DNA of 64,000 nucleotides from Nostoc sp. DedSLP01. GTDB lineage: Bacteria > Cyanobacteriota > Cyanobacteriia > Cyanobacteriales > Nostocaceae. Both the position numbers and the translations under genes were made by a program. The stretch spans positions 42,328 through 106,327 of the forward strand of contig JAVRCJ020000027.1 in NCBI GenBank assembly GCA_034530875.2, written 5' to 3'. The notes below the pieces were generated by a model. The model was not told the origin of the DNA and ran no database searches. It saw nothing but the letters and a program-made list of their open reading frames with translations. Positions 12,294 through 21,332 of the stretch are shown here, one piece after another (within the stretch, counting starts at the first letter, position 1; every line of letters begins with the position of its first letter).

Positions 12294-14672
12294 CTAAGAT
12301 ACTATTCCCGAGTTCTGAATTCTTTCAACTTGCTTTGGAGCTTTTATTTCAGTAAATAACTGAATTGCTTGATGAAAATTACTTTGACTCTTATCAGATT
12401 TTGCCATTTTTTGATAAGTTAAACCAAATTGAAAATAAGCTTCAGCTAAGTCACATTTAGCACCGATTTTTTCCAAAAGTTCGATTGCCTCTGTATGATT
12501 AGCAAAAGCTAATTCAAAATTTTCTTGGTATCTATGGATTTCTGCTAAACCATTGAGTGTTTTAGCTTTAACTTGCATATAGTGGCTTTCTTCTGCAAAA
12601 GTTAAAGCTTGGCTGAACATCTGATTTGCTTTATCAAATTCTCCTAAATTGACGTAGGTTTGACCCAAAATTTGGATAAAATAAGCAAATCTACCAGTTT
12701 GTTCTATTAGTTTTGGGTTGGTAATATTTTGATAAGCTACATCTGCCAATTGATAAGAAGCATCGCGTAAACCTAAATAAGAATATACTAAAGCTAAACA
12801 CACCGAGGCTTTTTCTGCCCAACTGTGATGCTTAGTATTTTGGGCTAGGTAAATTACTTGTTGAAATAACTTTGCGGCTGCTTCTAGTTCCCACAAATCT
12901 ATTTGATAAAGACCAATACTTAATAAAGAATCTACCTCAAGCATCCTCAGATAATAAACTGTATGCTTATTTTCTGGTTGAGGTACAAGTGATTTGAGTG
13001 CTTGGGTTGCTAAATTAATAGTTTTTTCTTGACAGGCGATCGCTTGACTAATTTTACCTGTTATCCAATAGAAATCGCCCAATATATTGTAAAGTTCGCT
13101 GAGATTTTGATGATTATCCAGATTATTAACAACTCGATTAATTGCCGTAAGTATCGGTTGAATTAAACCCATCCGATACAATGTACTTCCAAGAGGTAAA
13201 AACTGCTGCCATTGATTATTTCGGCTTTTGAGAATAACTTGACCTGCTAATTCTAATTCCTGAATTTCGATATAGTGATAATATGCTTCTAAAGCTTGCA
13301 AAGCATCTTTAAAAGTTTCAATTTTTTTAACACTATCTGTCCAAAATTCAGCGGCTTTGTGGTTGGCAATTTCCCATTCCTCACTGGGTCGTAAACGAGC
13401 GATCGCTTCTGCCCGAATCACTGGATGCAGGCAATATTTACCTTGATCGCACTCTATCAAAGACCGATTTCTTAAGGAAGTAATAATTTGGCGATGTTGT
13501 TCGGATGGAACATCCCACAGCAAACAAAATAAACCTTGAGATGGGATACTTGGTATATCTTGATAGCGATAACAACCCAAACGGCAAAGCAAGCGATAGG
13601 CTTGGGGGTCGAGATTTTGTAAGCGATTAATTTGACTAACTGCTAAATTTTTTAAATCGGTTGCTGCTAGAGGATCGGCCTGATTTTCTTGCCAATAAAC
13701 AGCCATATCGCCATCAAAATCTTCTTGAATGGAACCACAGAGAATTCCCATTGCTTTAGCATTACCGTTATATGTGCGATGCATAATTTCTAAAGTTGGC
13801 GAATCTATGGCTAATCCTCGGTTGCTAAAAAACTGTTGCCATGCACTTTTATCCAAACCAGGAAGCCGATAATGATTCACATTTAGCCCAGGTTCGCAAA
13901 GGCGATCGCGGCTAGTAATTAGAGTCACAGATTGCACCCTAGCATCAGCTAAAATCCGTAATAGCTCTACATAGTTGCGGTGAGAAGCAATCAACCCACC
14001 TTTTCCATCTAATGCAGGTTCGAGATTGTCAATTAACACCCCAATGCGCCGATTGTGGAGTTGGCGCTTGAGTCGTGCCAAAGTTACCCCAAATTCTACC
14101 CCAGGTTCTTCATTAAAATCTTGTTTGAGCCATTCCTCTACAACTCGTTCGGCGGGAGTGATATTTTGCGTTTCCTTGGCCATCAGCAGTTCCAAAACCA
14201 ACTCAAAATTCTGAGTTTGGAGATATTGCTGCGCCAGAGTAGTTTTGCCCAAACCGCCTTCACCTTGGATAACAATGACTTTCGAGCCTTGATTTACCAA
14301 AGTATTCAAGTGAGCGATCGCTTCTGTTCGTCCAATAAAATTGCTATCCTCTAATTTTGGGGCGGCGTGTGGCGTTCTGGAGTAATCAATCAGACTGGAT
14401 ATCGTATTACTTTTTCTCAGAACCCGTTCCAAAGTAGCGCGACAATTACTTTTAGTAATCTTCTGGCGCAGTACCTTAGAAAGTAACTTCCACAACTGAG
14501 AACCAGCATCCTTAGCATGTCCTTCCGTACAACCGTAAGAACGAGCAATATCCAAGTATTTCCTACCCAACCAAACTTGCCCAAGAATGACTTTTTGCAA
14601 ATCGCTCAACCGTTCCCCGGTTTGAGCAGGAACTATGGTGTCTAACCATGCTAATGCTGCTTGGGCGTCCAT
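12294..14672 (-). CDS. HTH + NB-ARC (STAND) ATPase + TPR protein
   Basis: N-terminal YLDIARSY...GSQLWKLLS HTH-like region; Walker A GEGGLGKT; Walker B VLIDNLE; LITSR; C-terminal TPRs. Confidence 0.85.
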   Translation of the reverse strand: MDAQAALAWLDTIVPAQTGERLSDLQKVILGQVWLGRKYLDIARSYGCTEGHAKDAGSQLWKLLSKVLRQKITKSNCRATLERVLRKSNTISSLIDYSRTPHAAPKLEDSNFIGRTEAIAHLNTLVNQGSKVIVIQGEGGLGKTTLAQQYLQTQNFELVLELLMAKETQNITPAERVVEEWLKQDFNEEPGVEFGVTLARLKRQLHNRRIGVLIDNLEPALDGKGGLIASHRNYVELLRILADARVQSVTLITSRDRLCEPGLNVNHYRLPGLDKSAWQQFFSNRGLAIDSPTLEIMHRTYNGNAKAMGILCGSIQEDFDGDMAVYWQENQADPLAATDLKNLAVSQINRLQNLDPQAYRLLCRLGCYRYQDIPSIPSQGLFCLLWDVPSEQHRQIITSLRNRSLIECDQGKYCLHPVIRAEAIARLRPSEEWEIANHKAAEFWTDSVKKIETFKDALQALEAYYHYIEIQELELAGQVILKSRNNQWQQFLPLGSTLYRMGLIQPILTAINRVVNNLDNHQNLSELYNILGDFYWITGKISQAIACQEKTINLATQALKSLVPQPENKHTVYYLRMLEVDSLLSIGLYQIDLWELEAAAKLFQQVIYLAQNTKHHSWAEKASVCLALVYSYLGLRDASYQLADVAYQNITNPKLIEQTGRFAYFIQILGQTYVNLGEFDKANQMFSQALTFAEESHYMQVKAKTLNGLAEIHRYQENFELAFANHTEAIELLEKIGAKCDLAEAYFQFGLTYQKMAKSDKSQSNFHQAIQLFTEIKAPKQVERIQNSGIVS

Positions 14673-14763
14673 TTGTAACAACTAGGATAGTTCAGACTTT
14701 ATTGACAACTATAAATCACTCTACAGTTATGCTTGTCAAATTTTCGGATAAGATTTTGTAAAT

Positions 14764-14790
14764 CCGACTTTTTTCCCGACTTTTCCGGCC
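14764..14790. promoter_or_regulatory. CCGACT direct-repeat boxes upstream of the NB-ARC gene
   Basis: CCGACT at 14764 and 14776, matching the block at 16801-16827. Confidence 0.55.
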
Positions 14791-14871
14791 TTGGCTCAAA
14801 AACGAAACTGTAAAAGCCTTGTGTTCTAATAAAATAAGACTTATTAGGTCATTCCAGCACCATCATTACTT

Positions 14872-15555
14872 ATGGTGAAATCCGACCCCCGCCAATCTTT
14901 GCCTAGCAGTGCTGAACTTCCTTGTTCAGACGACACGCCTGTGGATAACGAAGACCAGAATTTTATTCCCAATCTACTTTTGTTCTTGCTGCAATATATT
15001 TGGGCAGACCGTAATGATTGGTTTTTTAGTGTTGATATGGGTGTTTACCATACCACAGGTGTCAGCCCACTTGTGCCAATTGTTCCAGACGGATTTTTGA
15101 GCTTGGGTGTAGAACGGCGCAAAGCAGGTAAATCGCGTAAAAGTTATGTTCTTTGGGAAGAAAACGAAATTCCACCCATTCTTGCTTTAGAAATTGTCTC
15201 CTTAACTCCGGGTGGAGAATATGACAAGAAATTAGATATTTATGCCAAATTAGGGGTACTGTACTACATTATTTATAATCCAGAGTATTGGCAAAGAGAC
15301 CGTCACCAACCTTTTGAAGTTTATCGCTTAGTAGATGGTAGCTATCAATTGCAAATTGGCGAACCTTTTTGGATGCCAGAAATTGGTTTAGGAATTGGTA
15401 GAGGGCAATACATATCTGGTAATATCCCGCGTCAGGTTTTGTATTGGTATGACCGACAAGGGAAGCGCTATCAAACTCCAGAAGAACAGTTAGAATTAGC
15501 ACAGAAACAACTTGAGCGTTATCGTCAGCAATTTGGGGATTTACCAGAAGGTTGA
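14872..15555 (+). CDS. Uma2-family putative endonuclease
   Basis: DDTPVDNEDQ, VPDGFL, LEIVS, YAKLGVLYYIIYNP. Confidence 0.9.
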   Translation: MVKSDPRQSLPSSAELPCSDDTPVDNEDQNFIPNLLLFLLQYIWADRNDWFFSVDMGVYHTTGVSPLVPIVPDGFLSLGVERRKAGKSRKSYVLWEENEIPPILALEIVSLTPGGEYDKKLDIYAKLGVLYYIIYNPEYWQRDRHQPFEVYRLVDGSYQLQIGEPFWMPEIGLGIGRGQYISGNIPRQVLYWYDRQGKRYQTPEEQLELAQKQLERYRQQFGDLPEG

Positions 15556-15561
15556 TTGAAA

Positions 15562-15846
15562 ATGCTGTACGTGGAAGAAATTTTTTGTCTGGGGAATAAA
15601 AAGTATCAAATACTCATTGGTGAGAGTGGAATTAGGTACTGGGCAAGCCTAGCCTATGAACAAATTATCACAAGAAAAAAGAAAGGCAAACCCAGGAAGT
15701 TATTAGAGTGGTCATGTATTGTAGAACTGAAGCAGGGTTCTGAGCTATTCGATACTCTTGTCCCAGATGGAGGGCTTTGGGCACCGTTGATAACCTATTT
15801 AAAAGAAATTGCTCGACAACATTCAGAAGACAATCTTCCAAGTTAA
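15562..15846 (+). CDS. Hypothetical protein
   Basis: 94-aa ORF directly after Uma2; no recognised motif. Confidence 0.5.
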   Translation: MLYVEEIFCLGNKKYQILIGESGIRYWASLAYEQIITRKKKGKPRKLLEWSCIVELKQGSELFDTLVPDGGLWAPLITYLKEIARQHSEDNLPS

Positions 15847-15886
15847 AAGAAGTAATTCATCAACTTGAATAAGATTGCTACATAGT

Positions 15887-15968
15887 ACTACTTTTTCCTT
15901 GACGCTTCCAACTCCATCACATAAAACTGCCGACTTCAGCCGACTGACAAAAGCAAGTGCGATCGCTT
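15887..15968 (+). repeat. ~80-bp duplicated promoter block, copy 1
   Basis: Ungapped match (offset 914) to 16801-16882, including TGCCGACTTCAGCCGACTGACAAAA and terminal GTGCGATCGCTT. Confidence 0.9.
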
Positions 15969-16021
15969 TGTTTTGTACGGTGTGTTATGCTGCTCTGTTA
16001 CACACCCTACCAGATTGGAAC

Positions 16022-16435
16022 TTATTCAGTTACATCACAAACTAACCTTTTAAATAAAGACAGAGAAATAATAGTTGTGTTTAACAAAGTTTGTGCTTCA
16101 TTAAAATCAGCATCACCCGTAATAAAAAAATCTGCTTCTGCTGCAATAGCACAAGCTAAAAACTTTGCATCTTTCCTATCTCTGGGAAAATCAACCTCCA
16201 CATCCACATCAATTAATGTTGTTACTGAATCAATTAAATAAATCCATCTTTCGTATTGTGCCTCAGTTAACTTTAAACGAGGGCGCTTTAAAACTTCTTT
16301 ATATTCTGCTATAATTTCAGCCGATACAATCCACTCAAAAGCAGAATTAGCAATTACAAATAAAATTACTGCCTCTGGATTTTTATCAGCTATAGCAGCA
16401 GATACTACAATATTAGTATCAATAATAACTTTCAT
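16022..16435 (-). CDS. PIN-family toxin
   Basis: MKVIIDTNIVVSA, RDRKDAKFL, ITGDADF acidic PIN residues. Confidence 0.9.
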   Translation of the reverse strand: MKVIIDTNIVVSAAIADKNPEAVILFVIANSAFEWIVSAEIIAEYKEVLKRPRLKLTEAQYERWIYLIDSVTTLIDVDVEVDFPRDRKDAKFLACAIAAEADFFITGDADFNEAQTLLNTTIISLSLFKRLVCDVTE

Positions 16436-16671
16436 TCTCCCAGCCTATAAGCTTCAATTTCTGCTGCTATTTCTTCATCAGTCAAGGGATTATCTGCGTG
16501 TATCGCTTGTATTTCTTTAAATAACTTTTTTACTTCTTCTGCTAAAGTAACCTTTTGATTATCCTCAGTTAAAATAATCACCTTAACTCTCTGTCCTGCT
16601 TCAAATGGTAAATTAGATAATACTAGCTGCTTGGGATCTGCAATAGTGATATATGTTTTATAAGAGTTCAT
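16432..16671 (-). CDS. Putative antitoxin
   Basis: 79 aa; ATGA overlap with the PIN gene; acidic LTDEEIAAEIEAYR tail. Confidence 0.8.
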   Translation of the reverse strand: MNSYKTYITIADPKQLVLSNLPFEAGQRVKVIILTEDNQKVTLAEEVKKLFKEIQAIHADNPLTDEEIAAEIEAYRLGE

Positions 16672-16800
16672 AATTTATGCTGTTACTCAAATTTTATCTA
16701 CCATTGTTCTAACAATTTCGCCACATTCTGTGCAATTCTCTCTTCTTACTTTGGAAACTCATCCTATAAGGCTAAGATTTTAAACCCAAATTTTCCATAA

Positions 16801-16882
16801 CCAACTTTTTCCCCGACTTTTCCAACTTAATTATATAAAATTGCCGACTTCAGCCGACTGACAAAACAAAGTGCGATCGCTT
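16801..16882 (+). promoter_or_regulatory. Promoter block with five CC(G/A)ACT boxes, copy 2
   Basis: Hexamers at 16801, 16813, 16822, 16844, 16854; ends at HIP1 about 40 bp before ATG 16924. Confidence 0.65.
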
Positions 16883-16923
16883 AGGCTATTGGGCAAAGAG
16901 ATAAAAAGCAAAGTATAAAAATT

Positions 16924-17862
16924 ATGCTTAACGCCCTCAGCCCAGTTGCAGAAGACTCAGCACCTCAAAGTTATCCCAGTCCTGACTATTTCCAAACACA
17001 GCAGTGCATTCGTTCTCTTGTAGACAGATATGTTGCAGCCGAAAAACTACACGAACGTTTGCAAGATTTACCGATACAGTTTCAAAATCCCCAACCGCGT
17101 CCTTGGAAACTCATCGACTGGCAAACAATAAATCGCAATCAAATTATCGGCATAGAACCAGAAGTATTCTTATCGATATTGATAGGTGCAATGGATACAG
17201 AAGCACCAATTCGCGGCTACACCCAAACCAGTCGCCAATATTTGGAAAAATTGCATCCTCAGATGGCGCGGTTTGTTGGTGGAACAGTCGGCGAAGACAA
17301 CAACCTCACAGAACTTGGTTTGTGGGAAAAAGAAGAACGCCAGCATACCCCTGCATTAATTAAGGTTTACACCCAACTAACAGGCGAGAAAATTACCGCA
17401 AAACATCGCACAGTTCGAGGCTATCTCCCCACAGATGACCCTCACGAGGATTTATATCGCCACGGCTTACACCGCATTGCTACAGAATACGGTGCAACCT
17501 GCCTTTACCTTTGGCTAATGGCTCATACCACAGGCGCACTCTACGACGTACTCGAAGAACTAGCACAAGACGAAATCAACCACATGACCAAATTCTGGGG
17601 CTTTGGAGTCTGGGCTTTTCCCGATACAGGGTTAATCAGAATTGGACGCACCCTCATAAAAACGCGGTCGCAAAACTATCAGCGCAACAACCTCATACGC
17701 ACCCTCCGCCGGATGATGGCTACCCTCAACTGGAACGCCTGGTCATTAGCCAACAAAACCACCCTCCTTTTCACCTTCACCCACACAATGCATCGCTTGT
17801 GGACTTGGAACAACACCCTCACACCAAAATACCTACAAACTTTATTTGAAACTCCTCAATAA
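16924..17862 (+). CDS. Ferritin-like di-iron carboxylate enzyme
   Basis: E...ExxH...E...ExxH pattern: DTEAP, EERQH, TEYGA, DEINH. Confidence 0.8.
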   Translation: MLNALSPVAEDSAPQSYPSPDYFQTQQCIRSLVDRYVAAEKLHERLQDLPIQFQNPQPRPWKLIDWQTINRNQIIGIEPEVFLSILIGAMDTEAPIRGYTQTSRQYLEKLHPQMARFVGGTVGEDNNLTELGLWEKEERQHTPALIKVYTQLTGEKITAKHRTVRGYLPTDDPHEDLYRHGLHRIATEYGATCLYLWLMAHTTGALYDVLEELAQDEINHMTKFWGFGVWAFPDTGLIRIGRTLIKTRSQNYQRNNLIRTLRRMMATLNWNAWSLANKTTLLFTFTHTMHRLWTWNNTLTPKYLQTLFETPQ

Positions 17863-17978
17863 ACCAATCGTTCAGACGCGATGAATCGCGTCTCTACATG
17901 AAACCACCTCTTCTTCTCTCTCTGCGTCTTTGCGTCTCTGCGTGAACTTTTTATCATTTCCCTCAACCCCAAAAACCC

Positions 17979-18725
17979 ATGACTCCATTACCCACCGACT
18001 TAAACCCCCAACACCTCCCCCACCACATCGCCGTCATCATGGATGGTAACGGCCGATGGGCAACCAAGCGAGGCTTACCCCGCATCGCCGGACATCGCCA
18101 AGGAGCAAAAACCCTCAAAGAATTATTACGTTGCTGCAAACACTGGGGAATCAGAGCATTAACAGCCTACGCCTTCTCAACAGAAAATTGGCAGCGTCCC
18201 ATTGAAGAAGTAAATTTTCTGATGCTTTTGTTTGAGCGATTGCTGCGCCGCGAGTTAGCACAGATGCATCAAGAAGGAGTGCGAATCTCATTTATTGGAG
18301 ATTTATCAATTTTACCCAAATCTCTGCAAATAGAAATGCAACGTTCAATGGCAGAGACATTAAATAATCAAGCAATACACTTTATAGTTGCAGTGAACTA
18401 CGGTAGTCGCAACGAAATTACAAGAGTCTGTCGCCAAGTAGCACAACTAGTAGAACGAGGCGAACTCAGCACCGAACAAGTGAATGAAAGCCTGATTCAA
18501 AAACACCTCTACACAGCAGATACTCCCGAACCAGATTTACTGATTCGTACTAGCGGTGAGATGCGATTGAGTAATTTTCTACTTTGGCAAATGGCGTATA
18601 CAGAAATGTACTTTACTGATATTCTTTGGCCAGATTTTGACACAGAAGCATTTCATCAGGCTTTGTTGAGTTACCAAAAACGCGATCGCCGTTTTGGTCA
18701 AGTTAAAACTTCACTCTCAGCCTAG
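17979..18725 (+). CDS. uppS: cis-prenyltransferase (UppS family, possibly a paralogue)
   Basis: [43 protein letters not shown]. Confidence 0.92.
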
Positions 18726-18750: not shown

Positions 18751-19884
18751 TCACCTAATCGACACCAAACCCGCTTCATTTATTAATTGCTGACCTTGCT
18801 CGCTCAACATTAAGTTAGCATAAGCTACTCCGGCTTGTTCGTCCAAGGTACCGTCTCGTTTGATGACGACAAACAGCCGTCTAACTAGGGGGTAAGCGTC
18901 CTTGGCAAAACCAATTTTATTTACTTGCTTGCCTATACAAGGAGATACAAAATTTTCATTAGACTCCCTAGCAATAGCAACAGGCTGAATCGATTGGTTA
19001 CAAACTTCTGAGGCTGTAGCAAAACTAATTCCACCAGGAGTTTTGGCAACTTTTTGTATAGCAGTTGTAGTGTCTTGCACGTAAGGTTTTACAGATTCGG
19101 CAAATGATTCATTAGCCAAAACTGTTTCTTCAACGTATTCAGGAGTACCCCCACCTTCTGGGTCGCGGCTTAAAGGAGTAATTTCCAGATTGGGGCCGCC
19201 TACTTGGTTCCAATTTGTGATTTTACCAGTGTATATATCCTTAAGTTGAGACACTGTTAAACCAGGTAAAGACAAATTAGGACTCACGTAAAAAGCTATT
19301 CCGTCAATGGCAACAGGTATCTGTTCTAGTTGAAAATTCTTTGTTTTCGCCTCTTGATATTCTTCTGTTTTTACAGGTCGAGACGATTGTGAAAAACTCA
19401 ATTGACCTTCTAAAAGCATCTTGATTCCAGTACCAGAACCAGGCTTAATTAATCCGGGTGGAGTAGCATAATTTAACTCAAATCTGGGATGAGCTTGTAG
19501 AATTTCCGCTATCATTCCCGGAGATCTTAGCGGTGCAAAACTTGTAGACCCACCGTACCTAAATCTTCCCTGGGGAATATTAGGTACGTCAGCAAAGGTA
19601 CGATAAAGAGGAATGGAATTTTGAGGAGAAACTGTAGGTTTAGGAGAAACTGTAGGTTTAGGAGAAATTGTTAAGTTACTATTACTACGAGAATTAATTA
19701 GCACGCATGAATTATTCAATTTTTGTTGACCTGTTGGGCAAGTTTTAGGCCAAAGTGCCCAGATTAAATAAGCATCGCCAATGGCAGCTATAGCTATAAA
19801 AATATTTATTATAATACGCTTTAATTTTGAGGTAGGTCTACGATTATTATCGAGATTGTTACGATTCATAACCTCTCTTGGCAC
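18751..19884 (-). CDS. Membrane-anchored PstS-like substrate-binding protein
   Basis: TM helix, YGGSTS, GSGTGI, QSSRP, VAIDGI, YPLVRRLF; start uncertain. Confidence 0.8.
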   Translation of the reverse strand: MPREVMNRNNLDNNRRPTSKLKRIIINIFIAIAAIGDAYLIWALWPKTCPTGQQKLNNSCVLINSRSNSNLTISPKPTVSPKPTVSPQNSIPLYRTFADVPNIPQGRFRYGGSTSFAPLRSPGMIAEILQAHPRFELNYATPPGLIKPGSGTGIKMLLEGQLSFSQSSRPVKTEEYQEAKTKNFQLEQIPVAIDGIAFYVSPNLSLPGLTVSQLKDIYTGKITNWNQVGGPNLEITPLSRDPEGGGTPEYVEETVLANESFAESVKPYVQDTTTAIQKVAKTPGGISFATASEVCNQSIQPVAIARESNENFVSPCIGKQVNKIGFAKDAYPLVRRLFVVIKRDGTLDEQAGVAYANLMLSEQGQQLINEAGLVSIR

Positions 19885-20222: not shown

Positions 20223-21332
20223 TTACTTTTGTTCGGTATCAGTATTATCAAGTACAAGGTACTTGCTATTTTCTTGCCGTAACCGAGCATCTTCATCGTT
20301 GTAAAAGAAGGACAACAGAACAAACCGCTGCCCACTGATGACAGGGGTAGCCTCATGTAGTAACGAGCAAGAAAAAATCACTGCTTCTCCAACATTTGGA
20401 GTATAAAGCTGAAGTCCATACTCTGGAAACCGCAAATCACCGCCTTTATAAGCACCCGTATTCAAATTTAATGACATAGCAAACCGTCGGTGAGCAGTGC
20501 CTTTGGTAGTATTATCGCGGTGACGATTAAAAAAGCCTTTATCGTTTGCTTCGTAACAAGATACTAGATAACGCTCAAAGCGAGTGATTGGAAATTGAAA
20601 AGCCTTCTCAATTTCTGGTTTCACTCGCCGCATAATAATATTATTTATATGCTTTAATAGTTCAGGTTCAGAAACTAAATAGTCTCGACGTTTTTTAAAT
20701 TCATAGTCATAAACTGCAACTGTTTTACCATCAATTTGTCGCATAAAACCAGAATCTTCACCGCCATCTGCTTCGTACAAATTAATTAAATGTTGGCAAA
20801 AACTTGGTTCTAGAACATTGGGTATAAATAAAACAGGTGCTTGTCTGGCTGCTGGAATATTTTCGGCGATCGGAGGTAAGTTTTGAATGAACTCAAACAC
20901 TTCCTGACAAGGATTAGTAGTAGCTGAGATTGGCAAAACTTTGATGATTCGTAAATTTTCATCCAATACAAAAATTGTTGGTCTGTATTCGAGTTCGTTA
21001 CTCCCCTGATTTTTCAGCCTACAAGTACCGTATTGAAAGCTAACTTTACGTTCAAAATCCCAAAGAAATTTAAAATAGGTTTTATTCTGTATTAACTCCG
21101 CCAAAAAACTATCATCTGTGTCTATACTCACACCAAAAAATGGTACTTGATACTCAGCCAAATCTTCTTGTCGGTTGGAGAATTCATCGATAATCTGACG
21201 AATATATGTGTTTTTTGAACTTCCGAAAAAAAACAAAATACTACGGTATCCGCCAATGGAGTTAAAGTGAAAATTGGGGTTTGAGTTTGAGGGAAGAATG
21301 AACCAGGGAATCGGATCGCCAACAGTAAGCAT
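20223..21332 (-). CDS. AhpC/TSA-like + 2OG-Fe(II) oxygenase fusion
   Basis: N-terminal GDPIPWF...GVSID...PTIFVLD; C-terminal HRD...LLHEATPV...R. Confidence 0.85.
   Translation of the reverse strand: MLTVGDPIPWFILPSNSNPNFHFNSIGGYRSILFFFGSSKNTYIRQIIDEFSNRQEDLAEYQVPFFGVSIDTDDSFLAELIQNKTYFKFLWDFERKVSFQYGTCRLKNQGSNELEYRPTIFVLDENLRIIKVLPISATTNPCQEVFEFIQNLPPIAENIPAARQAPVLFIPNVLEPSFCQHLINLYEADGGEDSGFMRQIDGKTVAVYDYEFKKRRDYLVSEPELLKHINNIIMRRVKPEIEKAFQFPITRFERYLVSCYEANDKGFFNRHRDNTTKGTAHRRFAMSLNLNTGAYKGGDLRFPEYGLQLYTPNVGEAVIFSCSLLHEATPVISGQRFVLLSFFYNDEDARLRQENSKYLVLDNTDTEQK

Follow-up and report, generated by a model that had tools for sequence, protein, structure and literature searches.

In the Escherichia coli regulator MalT the DNA-binding helix-turn-helix (HTH) domain is located at the C-terminus. 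According to the available part of the literature, MalT multimerises on its inducer, which leads to cooperative box binding (PMC4381067), and AfsR from Streptomyces coelicolor, composed of a DNA-binding head, a NOD and a TPR domain, binds two 11-bp repeats overlapping the -35 element (PMC10936776). Here we describe a 64,000-nucleotide stretch of Nostoc sp. DedSLP01 (contig JAVRCJ020000027.1, positions 42,328 to 106,327; hereafter the window), a Nostoc-group cyanobacterium, in which the gene of a STAND regulator (hereafter STAND) faces the genes of a ferritin-like protein (FLP) and of a cis-prenyltransferase, uppS2 (Table 1). The three genes lie where a preliminary description of this DNA had placed them, in agreement with the list of open reading frames (ORFs) of the window, and FLP is 93-95% identical to the closest named loci. 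Architecture, synteny, conserved boxes and co-loss show that the trio, of which no description was found in the open-access literature searched, is a conserved accessory module. On balance, the sequence comparisons suggest that it consists of an AfsR/MalT-like STAND transcription factor and one target operon, FLP-uppS2, which is on in hormogonia. An NLR-like sensor with a DNA-binding head thus seems to switch on FLP and a spare uppS in many filamentous cyanobacteria.

STAND differs from AfsR in having neither an OmpR-type domain nor a BTAD, its head being the LuxR/sigma4-like HTH PF26355, and also in its 6-bp boxes, its cyanobacterial origin and its single local target. In contrast to MalT, the HTH of STAND is N-terminal and its boxes all point one way. 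Similar to AfsR, STAND carries an N-terminal DNA-binding domain, a NOD and a C-terminal TPR domain, and is associated with direct repeats in tandem, spaced by roughly a helical turn, over the -35 of a weak promoter (PMC10936776), while with MalT and the LAL regulators it shares the STAND core, a TPR-type sensor, an HTH of LuxR type and arrays of asymmetric boxes (PMC4381067). The N-terminal domain is also held in common with the cyanobacterial PF26355 (HTH_VMAP-M9) proteins. This domain is named from vWA-MoxR conflict systems, but no vWA or MoxR gene was noticed at STAND loci, where no dedicated scan was made beyond the window; there is none among the window ORFs between 9000 and 23000, and the neighbours at other loci are variable and were not scanned for these families. 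No operator for the PF26355 domain was found in the open-access literature searched, including the available part of PMC7159879. The present locus would extend AfsR/MalT-type regulation to cyanobacteria, with a predicted operator and target for a common HTH-STAND domain.

Synteny, co-occurrence and loss of the module

Of 385 FLP loci, the best 80 were compared, nearly all of which are from Nostoc; uppS directly follows FLP in 77 of these and STAND is found within the locus in 58 (12 of the 80 have short flanks); FLP is intact in 77, uppS2 in 75 and STAND in 51. Adjacency of FLP and uppS was also found in three other families (L113, L117, L149). The head-to-head layout of STAND and FLP, which the preliminary description had obtained by removing the cargo between them, occurs as such in other genera, with cargo-free spacers of about 231 bp in L113, which belongs to another family, and of 253, 270 and 319 bp in L141, L140 and L121, respectively, but no cargo-free allele was present among the 58 Nostoc-group loci with STAND nearby (spacers of 528-5082 bp).

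In one draw of 121 genomes of the family, in which 16 STAND candidates were scored per genome and one genome was 38% contaminated, FLP was matched in 34 genomes (29 with clade 1, 2 with remnants, 3 with the sister clade only), a STAND orthologue (at least 66%) in 24 and uppS2 in 27. All 24 STAND-positive genomes contain both uppS2 and a clade-1 FLP (truncated in G170), which, together with the Nostoc-group synteny, supports the conservation of the trio. Five clade-1 FLP genomes have no STAND orthologue, their best candidate reaching 52% with all candidates scored, and these contain one uppS each; uppS2 alone was found in three genomes. In the 37 genomes of the genus, FLP is absent, incomplete or disrupted in six, and five of these are also without an intact STAND orthologue. 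Since FLP was detected in only 15 of the 301 genomes of a draw from the phylum, the module is accessory.

With regard to uppS2, TIGR00055 and PF01255 are matched above cut-off and all catalytic motifs are intact. A second uppS is found elsewhere in the genome, directly behind a gene of 307 aa, which we take from its sequence to be cdaA, so that uppS2 is not the only copy. The two share all catalytic motifs and 64% identity, but uppS2 falls in a clade separate from the cdaA-linked housekeeping copies, is accessory and is strongly inducible; in a quick tree, which left three distant uppS2 rows unresolved, six cdaA-linked copies formed one branch (support 98) apart from it. With E 6e-72 against C55 synthases and 1e-41 against short-chain Z-FPPS, it is nearer to the former and looks like a normal long-chain synthase. 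The preliminary description had named a trio that is not conserved, a sole uppS and boxes that are not conserved as outcomes against it; all of these could be examined in silico, and none was observed.

Remains of FLP were seen beside uppS2 at several loci. FLP is deleted in L171-L173, L199 and L200, where its last 60-100 bases or its promoter are left before an intact uppS2, and in L199 a short CRISPR-like repeat array lies upstream of the uppS2 promoter. In the RNA contigs X1-X3 of a relative (one study, share 0.09), in which level, strand and co-transcription are not readable, FLP has a deletion of 586 bp and the adjoining uppS2 is intact.

CCGACT boxes and the STAND regulator

Ten CCRACT boxes, all on the plus strand, occur at the locus, those at 15908, 15930 and 15940 in addition to those listed in Table 1. 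When the cargo is deleted in silico between its bounding repeats, five boxes remain with spacings of 12, 9, 22 and 10, and the cargo-free locus L141 shows the four-box core as reconstructed in the preliminary description. The consensus across loci is CC(G/T/A)ACT, with G preferred. Only 10 clusters of at least three CCRACT are present in the 8.6-Mb genome, two of them at the locus, the other eight being mostly simple or coding repeats. A matrix of the box pair and the -35, derived from 19 loci of other genomes, scored 39.8 bits at the two window copies and at most 16.6 elsewhere; matrix and promoter searches of this genome revealed one such promoter location and no wider regulon. The FLP promoter was not among the 8 sites of a generic promoter scan, for which 8.4 were expected. 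Judged by conservation and co-loss, the direct-repeat array overlapping the -35 of the target has the geometry of AfsR/MalT-type operators.

The boxes were counted over a stretch of 77 nt up to the -35 CTGACA. Two to four CCNACT were present in all 19 anchored STAND-positive loci, and the two of the 21 that were not anchored also show boxes, while five STAND-less loci contained 0-1 CCNACT and no exact CCGACT (0/5); the STAND-less G434 has zero boxes. The seven STAND-less FLP rows are placed at six positions of the FLP tree, and four are supported sisters of STAND-positive genomes. In G034 and G015, which are 99-100% complete and have no STAND orthologue, every box is mutated and the -35, -10 and flanks are kept; their FLP is cut to a remnant and uppS2 is kept at 92%. 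Box counts were not clearly different between loci with and without an intact uppS2 (80 Nostoc-group loci). The operator-like array is thus conserved across STAND-positive loci and mostly tracks the regulator, although four STAND-less drafts keep it.

Boxes also precede more distant members of the regulator family. At least two CC(G/A/T)ACT were found 40-200 bp upstream of all nine scored STAND homologues of 43-54% identity and of three more, against a background of 50 in 4130 crude ORFs, and six other HTH homologues in the genome of the window have no boxes upstream on the corresponding strand. As these STAND paralogues have other target genes, the boxes travel with the regulator family and not with the target. 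In light of these patterns, STAND probably binds the CCGACT boxes. It is improbable that they are bound by another factor, or represent recombination repeats, with STAND as merely an ancestral neighbour; the boxes retained in the four STAND-less drafts and the promoter copies that recur inside the spacers of 10 of 58 loci would fit this explanation, but not the boxes that accompany paralogues to unrelated target genes, nor the selective erosion of boxes upon STAND loss.

The paralogous clade with 43-49% identity (L176, L177, L182, L185-L188, L196-L198) has CCTACT or CCAACT boxes, often with an inverted copy, and its boxed members mostly face two genes for small membrane proteins, one of 86-89 aa and rich in Cys and His, the other of 75 aa with two helices, neither with an NCBIfam family. 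A 48% homologue of the 75-aa protein is encoded in the genome of the window (contig C18, 72004-72231, minus strand), without boxes or an adjoining STAND.

In STAND, NB-ARC was detected above cut-off (28.1 bits vs 23.5) and TPR_12 was also matched; among the 120 homologues listed, PF26355 is present in 119, the Walker A motif GxGGxGKT in 119, Walker B in 120 and the sensor-1 Arg in 115. The model of the head (pLDDT 88.6) was best matched by NarL, RcsB, VqmA, DosR and sigma region 4 (Z 7.2-7.9; NarL: Z 7.6, root-mean-square deviation (rmsd) 2.5, 64 aligned). Although these scores alone are modest, the match list is uniform, nearly all of its 50 rows being LuxR/sigma-4-type or other HTHs, and Sigma70_r4 gave weak matches in 9 of 32 family members, which supports the HTH proposed in the preliminary description and specifies it as a LuxR/sigma-4-type fold. 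Foldseek returned nothing under E 0.001 for the model of the head or that of FLP. Since this fold resembles LuxR, NarL and sigma-4, STAND is best read as an AfsR/MalT-like activator; it is a member of neither family. The SARP family, to which AfsR proper belongs, was excluded by an NCBIfam NF053617 score of 43.6 bits (cut-off 1430) and by the lack of Pfam matches to an OmpR-type winged HTH or BTAD, only about 110 residues preceding NB-ARC; the LAL/MalT family proper was excluded by the C-terminal TPR and the N-terminal HTH.

From the promoter analysis, STAND likely activates rather than represses. A repressor sitting on the -35, released or lowered on a developmental signal, so that loss of STAND renders uppS2 constitutive, would be in line with the overlap of the last box with the -35, and with G034 and G015, where an intact uppS2 with an intact core promoter has no boxes, as if expression outlived the regulator. 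Only a small chance is given to this alternative, since the -10 is poor, FLP and uppS2 often decay upon STAND loss, and the characterised STAND factors of like geometry in the available sources are activators (PMC4381067, PMC10936776).

Hormogonium expression and the two enzymes

In Nostoc punctiforme, a tractable model that contains all three genes, FLP is ACC80605.1. The upstream region and start of the window FLP match the promoter row published for Npun_R1953, and Npun_R1952 carries the annotation undecaprenyl pyrophosphate synthase (PMC6495340, available part, as for all data from this study). During hormogonium induction, published RNA-seq values were 4, 177, 331, 147 and 58 for R1952 and 2, 27, 46, 71 and 44 for R1953, corresponding to rises of about 80-fold and 35-fold, respectively, and remained at 2-22 and 1-6 in a sigJ mutant; the other uppS, F5991, rose from 59 to 242 (PMC6495340). 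Both R1952 and R1953 are listed in the sigJ regulon, but no J-box motif is assigned to R1953 in the available text (PMC6495340), and no J-box was found in the window between 16700 and 18000 or before STAND, which leaves room for an intermediate activator. Direct membership in the SigJ regulon was consequently not adopted, and a J-box-like string inside FLP (37 of 77 loci) was set aside as a product of M-G-T-L codons that is absent from the window. In the available part of a diel study R1952 is named only as co-expressed with nagB (10.1101/2024.09.03.611090). The link to hormogonia and SigJ, which was absent from the preliminary description, makes STAND a candidate for a regulator acting between SigJ and the genes that depend on it indirectly in hormogonia, the motile, plant-infecting stage of Nostoc, and we infer that it acts in hormogonium development.

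In the mechanism we propose, a signal sensed by the TPR domain would open the NB-ARC switch and allow STAND to oligomerise, whereupon its LuxR-type HTHs would bind the phased CCGACT direct repeats. As one box overlaps the -35, the bound protein could bring in RNA polymerase despite the poor -10 of the promoter. The STAND-side box pair over its own promoter would provide autoregulation. The operon would be switched on in hormogonium development downstream of SigJ, probably indirectly. uppS2 may then raise the supply of polyprenyl-phosphate carrier needed to remodel the wall and to secrete polysaccharide, while FLP, a soluble or membrane-surface di-iron desaturase or hydroxylase, might oxidise an envelope lipid or an acyl-carrier-bound chain; the two would be co-regulated, and their product need not be common to both. 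A bolder version, which we consider unlikely, is that PF26355-NB-ARC-TPR proteins of filamentous cyanobacteria are an unrecognised family of NLR-like one-component activators reading CC(G/T/A)ACT, and that this member, on a SigJ-dependent developmental signal, drives the synthesis of a dedicated oxidised polyprenyl lipid for hormogonium differentiation, motility or symbiotic infection.

Several observations weigh against a STAND-driven operon. STAND is not adjacent in 10 of the 80 Nostoc-group loci, these 10 having full flanks, nor in N. punctiforme, where its orthologue ACC80850.1 is 245 accessions away from FLP and therefore not a neighbour. SigJ dependence could bypass STAND, and R1952 and R1953 are expressed at different levels and behave differently in a sigC mutant (PMC6495340), so that a second promoter may exist. 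Four genomes of the genus with a full-length FLP also lack an intact STAND orthologue, and genome counts are not independent because the genomes are related. The STAND-less G392 retains 2 boxes, and the drafts G008, G010, G014 and G022 (93-99% complete), in which no STAND orthologue was found, keep 3-4. Three further STAND homologues, among them that of G058 (55% identical, with the same recognition-helix motif), have no box in the scored window, and the paralogue loci L178, L179, L181, L183 and L184 were unscored as they gave no N-terminal match. Finally, the Z-scores of the head are below 8 and within the range of common folds.

The ligands of FLP, E93, E138xxH141, E188 and E217xxH220, are invariant or nearly so over 35 homologues. 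Its model (pLDDT 86.9) matched 6d9f (Z 15.0, rmsd 4.0, 235 aligned), R2lox (14.6) and stearoyl-ACP desaturase (12.4) at 7-13% identity, with rows tied among the R2/R2lox/ADO/desaturase class, and its neighbours in language-model (ESM) features were FA_desaturase_2 (0.93) and AurF (0.91). No sequence match was found in Pfam, NCBIfam, PADLOC, PDB or the plasmids searched. FLP therefore resembles R2lox, ADO, acyl-ACP desaturase and AurF in its E/ExxH/E/ExxH ligands and large helical bundle, but differs from the class I/II di-iron oxidases in being only 7-14% identical to them, without a Pfam or NCBIfam match or a sequence-related solved structure. By its ligands and modelled fold it is an oxidase of the R2/ADO/acyl-ACP-desaturase class, in line with the substrate-oxidising role assigned to it previously, and it brings an uncharacterised di-iron oxidase family to attention. 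A role in iron storage was rejected: the top structural matches are large proteins of the R2/ADO class, and of 56 homologues scanned, 10 are fused to a reductase domain (FNR-type, NAD-binding), in most cases together with a BFD 2Fe-2S domain. The distant fusion proteins, of 810-1502 aa (P0190, P0213, P0214, P0226, P0227, P0235, P0236, P0238, P0250, P0251), do not fall into a named family and may be di-iron oxidases that are self-sufficient. In L114, L115, L146 and L147 a sister-clade FLP gene precedes hisA, and the copies in L146 and L147 miss several iron ligands.

The preliminary description had proposed that both enzymes contribute to one oxidised cis-polyprenyl product. In such a two-step pathway driven by STAND, uppS2 would build a cis-polyprenyl chain and FLP would desaturate or oxygenate it to a dedicated lipid or signal. 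The adjacency of FLP and uppS across families, the joint loss of uppS2 and STAND in five family genomes, the joint induction of R1952 and R1953 (PMC6495340) and a basic amphipathic stretch in FLP (residues 229-276) are compatible with this proposal. Ferritin-like enzymes acting on prenylated substrates have precedents in MiaE, Coq7 and AOX. Nevertheless, we regard a shared product as doubtful, mainly because FLP and uppS2 often separate and the sister-clade FLPs have no uppS neighbour. uppS2 is intact with FLP deleted or truncated in G034, G015, G125, G126, G164, G170, G027 and RNA organism A, and FLP is kept with uppS2 gone in G063, G065, G167, G095, G145, G434 and G392, thus at least seven genomes each way. 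In addition, uppS2 shares its motifs and 64% identity with the housekeeping copy and is closer to C55 than to short-chain synthases, and acyl-ACP or arylamines are the substrates of the named families nearest to FLP.

Spacer cargo and other features of the window

Table 1. Positions of the module, its promoter elements and the spacer cargo in the window
Feature	Position	Strand	Remarks
STAND regulator, 795 aa from TTG	12294-14681	-	PF26355 (HTH_VMAP-M9) head, NB-ARC, TPR
STAND-side box pair, CCGACT at 14764 and 14776	14753-14786	+	left copy of the 34-nt repeat
Cargo: Uma2 putative restriction endonuclease	14872-15555	+	
Cargo: 96-aa ORF without family	15556-15846	+	Pfam/NCBIfam profiles
Internal 79-nt copy of FLP promoter	15890-15968	+	boxes and -35, without -10; end is the presumed HIP1 octamer
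Cargo: PIN toxin	16022-16435	-	
Cargo: antitoxin of PIN toxin	16432-16671	-	
FLP promoter, boxes at 16801, 16813, 16822, 16844, 16854	16790-16887	+	elements assigned by conservation
-35 CTGACA of FLP promoter	16858-16863	+	shares bases with last box
Weak -10 TAGGCT of FLP promoter	16882-16887	+	assigned by conservation
FLP, ferritin-like di-iron carboxylate oxidase, 312 aa	16924-17862	+	orthologue of Npun_R1953
uppS2, intact paralogous cis-prenyltransferase, 248 aa	17979-18725	+	orthologue of Npun_R1952

The probable start of STAND is the ATG at 14672, which is used by its homologues. The cargo (14872-16671) is bounded by a 34-nt direct repeat (14753-14786 and 16790-16823, 82%); this repeat is explained by the box pair that stayed with each of the two promoters when the cargo was inserted. 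The 58 Nostoc-group spacers contain 184 ORFs in 39 clusters, some of them spurious; Uma2 is present in 45, and the other cargo in the 24 representatives scanned comprises two PIN toxin-antitoxin (TA) pairs, SUKH, AbiJ-NTD4, PhoX fragments, HNH, ParE, an OLD-like ATPase-TOPRIM and GmrSD. Most of the internal promoter copies in 10 of the 58 spacers end at or near an octamer that we take to be HIP1, hinting at HIP1-linked duplication.

The PIN and ParE TA genes, AbiJ-NTD4, OLD-like ATPase-TOPRIM, GmrSD and HNH in the spacers, the patchy distribution of the module and the small membrane proteins faced by STAND paralogues could suggest an inducible anti-phage or envelope-stress response within a defence hotspot, in which an NLR-like sensor turns on envelope-modifying enzymes. 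This possibility appears slim. In PADLOC, neither FLP nor uppS2 was matched, and the matches of STAND were confined to short TPR and P-loop stretches, none of them full-length to known anti-phage STAND systems; STAND is 87-89% conserved across the genus, unlike fast-evolving sensors; FLP was not found on the plasmids searched; and induction is developmental, without phage (PMC6495340). The cargo hotspot of TA and defence genes looks incidental to the regulatory unit formed by STAND and its operon.

On the minus strand the proximal box pair (15929-15944 and 16843-16858) forms a terminator-like hairpin, and the internal copy lies downstream of the PIN gene. Convergent on uppS2 is a gene (18751-19884, minus strand) whose product is a binding protein of the PstS family that carries a membrane anchor at its N-terminus. 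The gene at 20223-21332 (minus strand) encodes an AhpC-TSA peroxiredoxin-like domain fused to a 2OG-Fe(II) oxygenase, which is found beside uppS2 also in L035 and L036.

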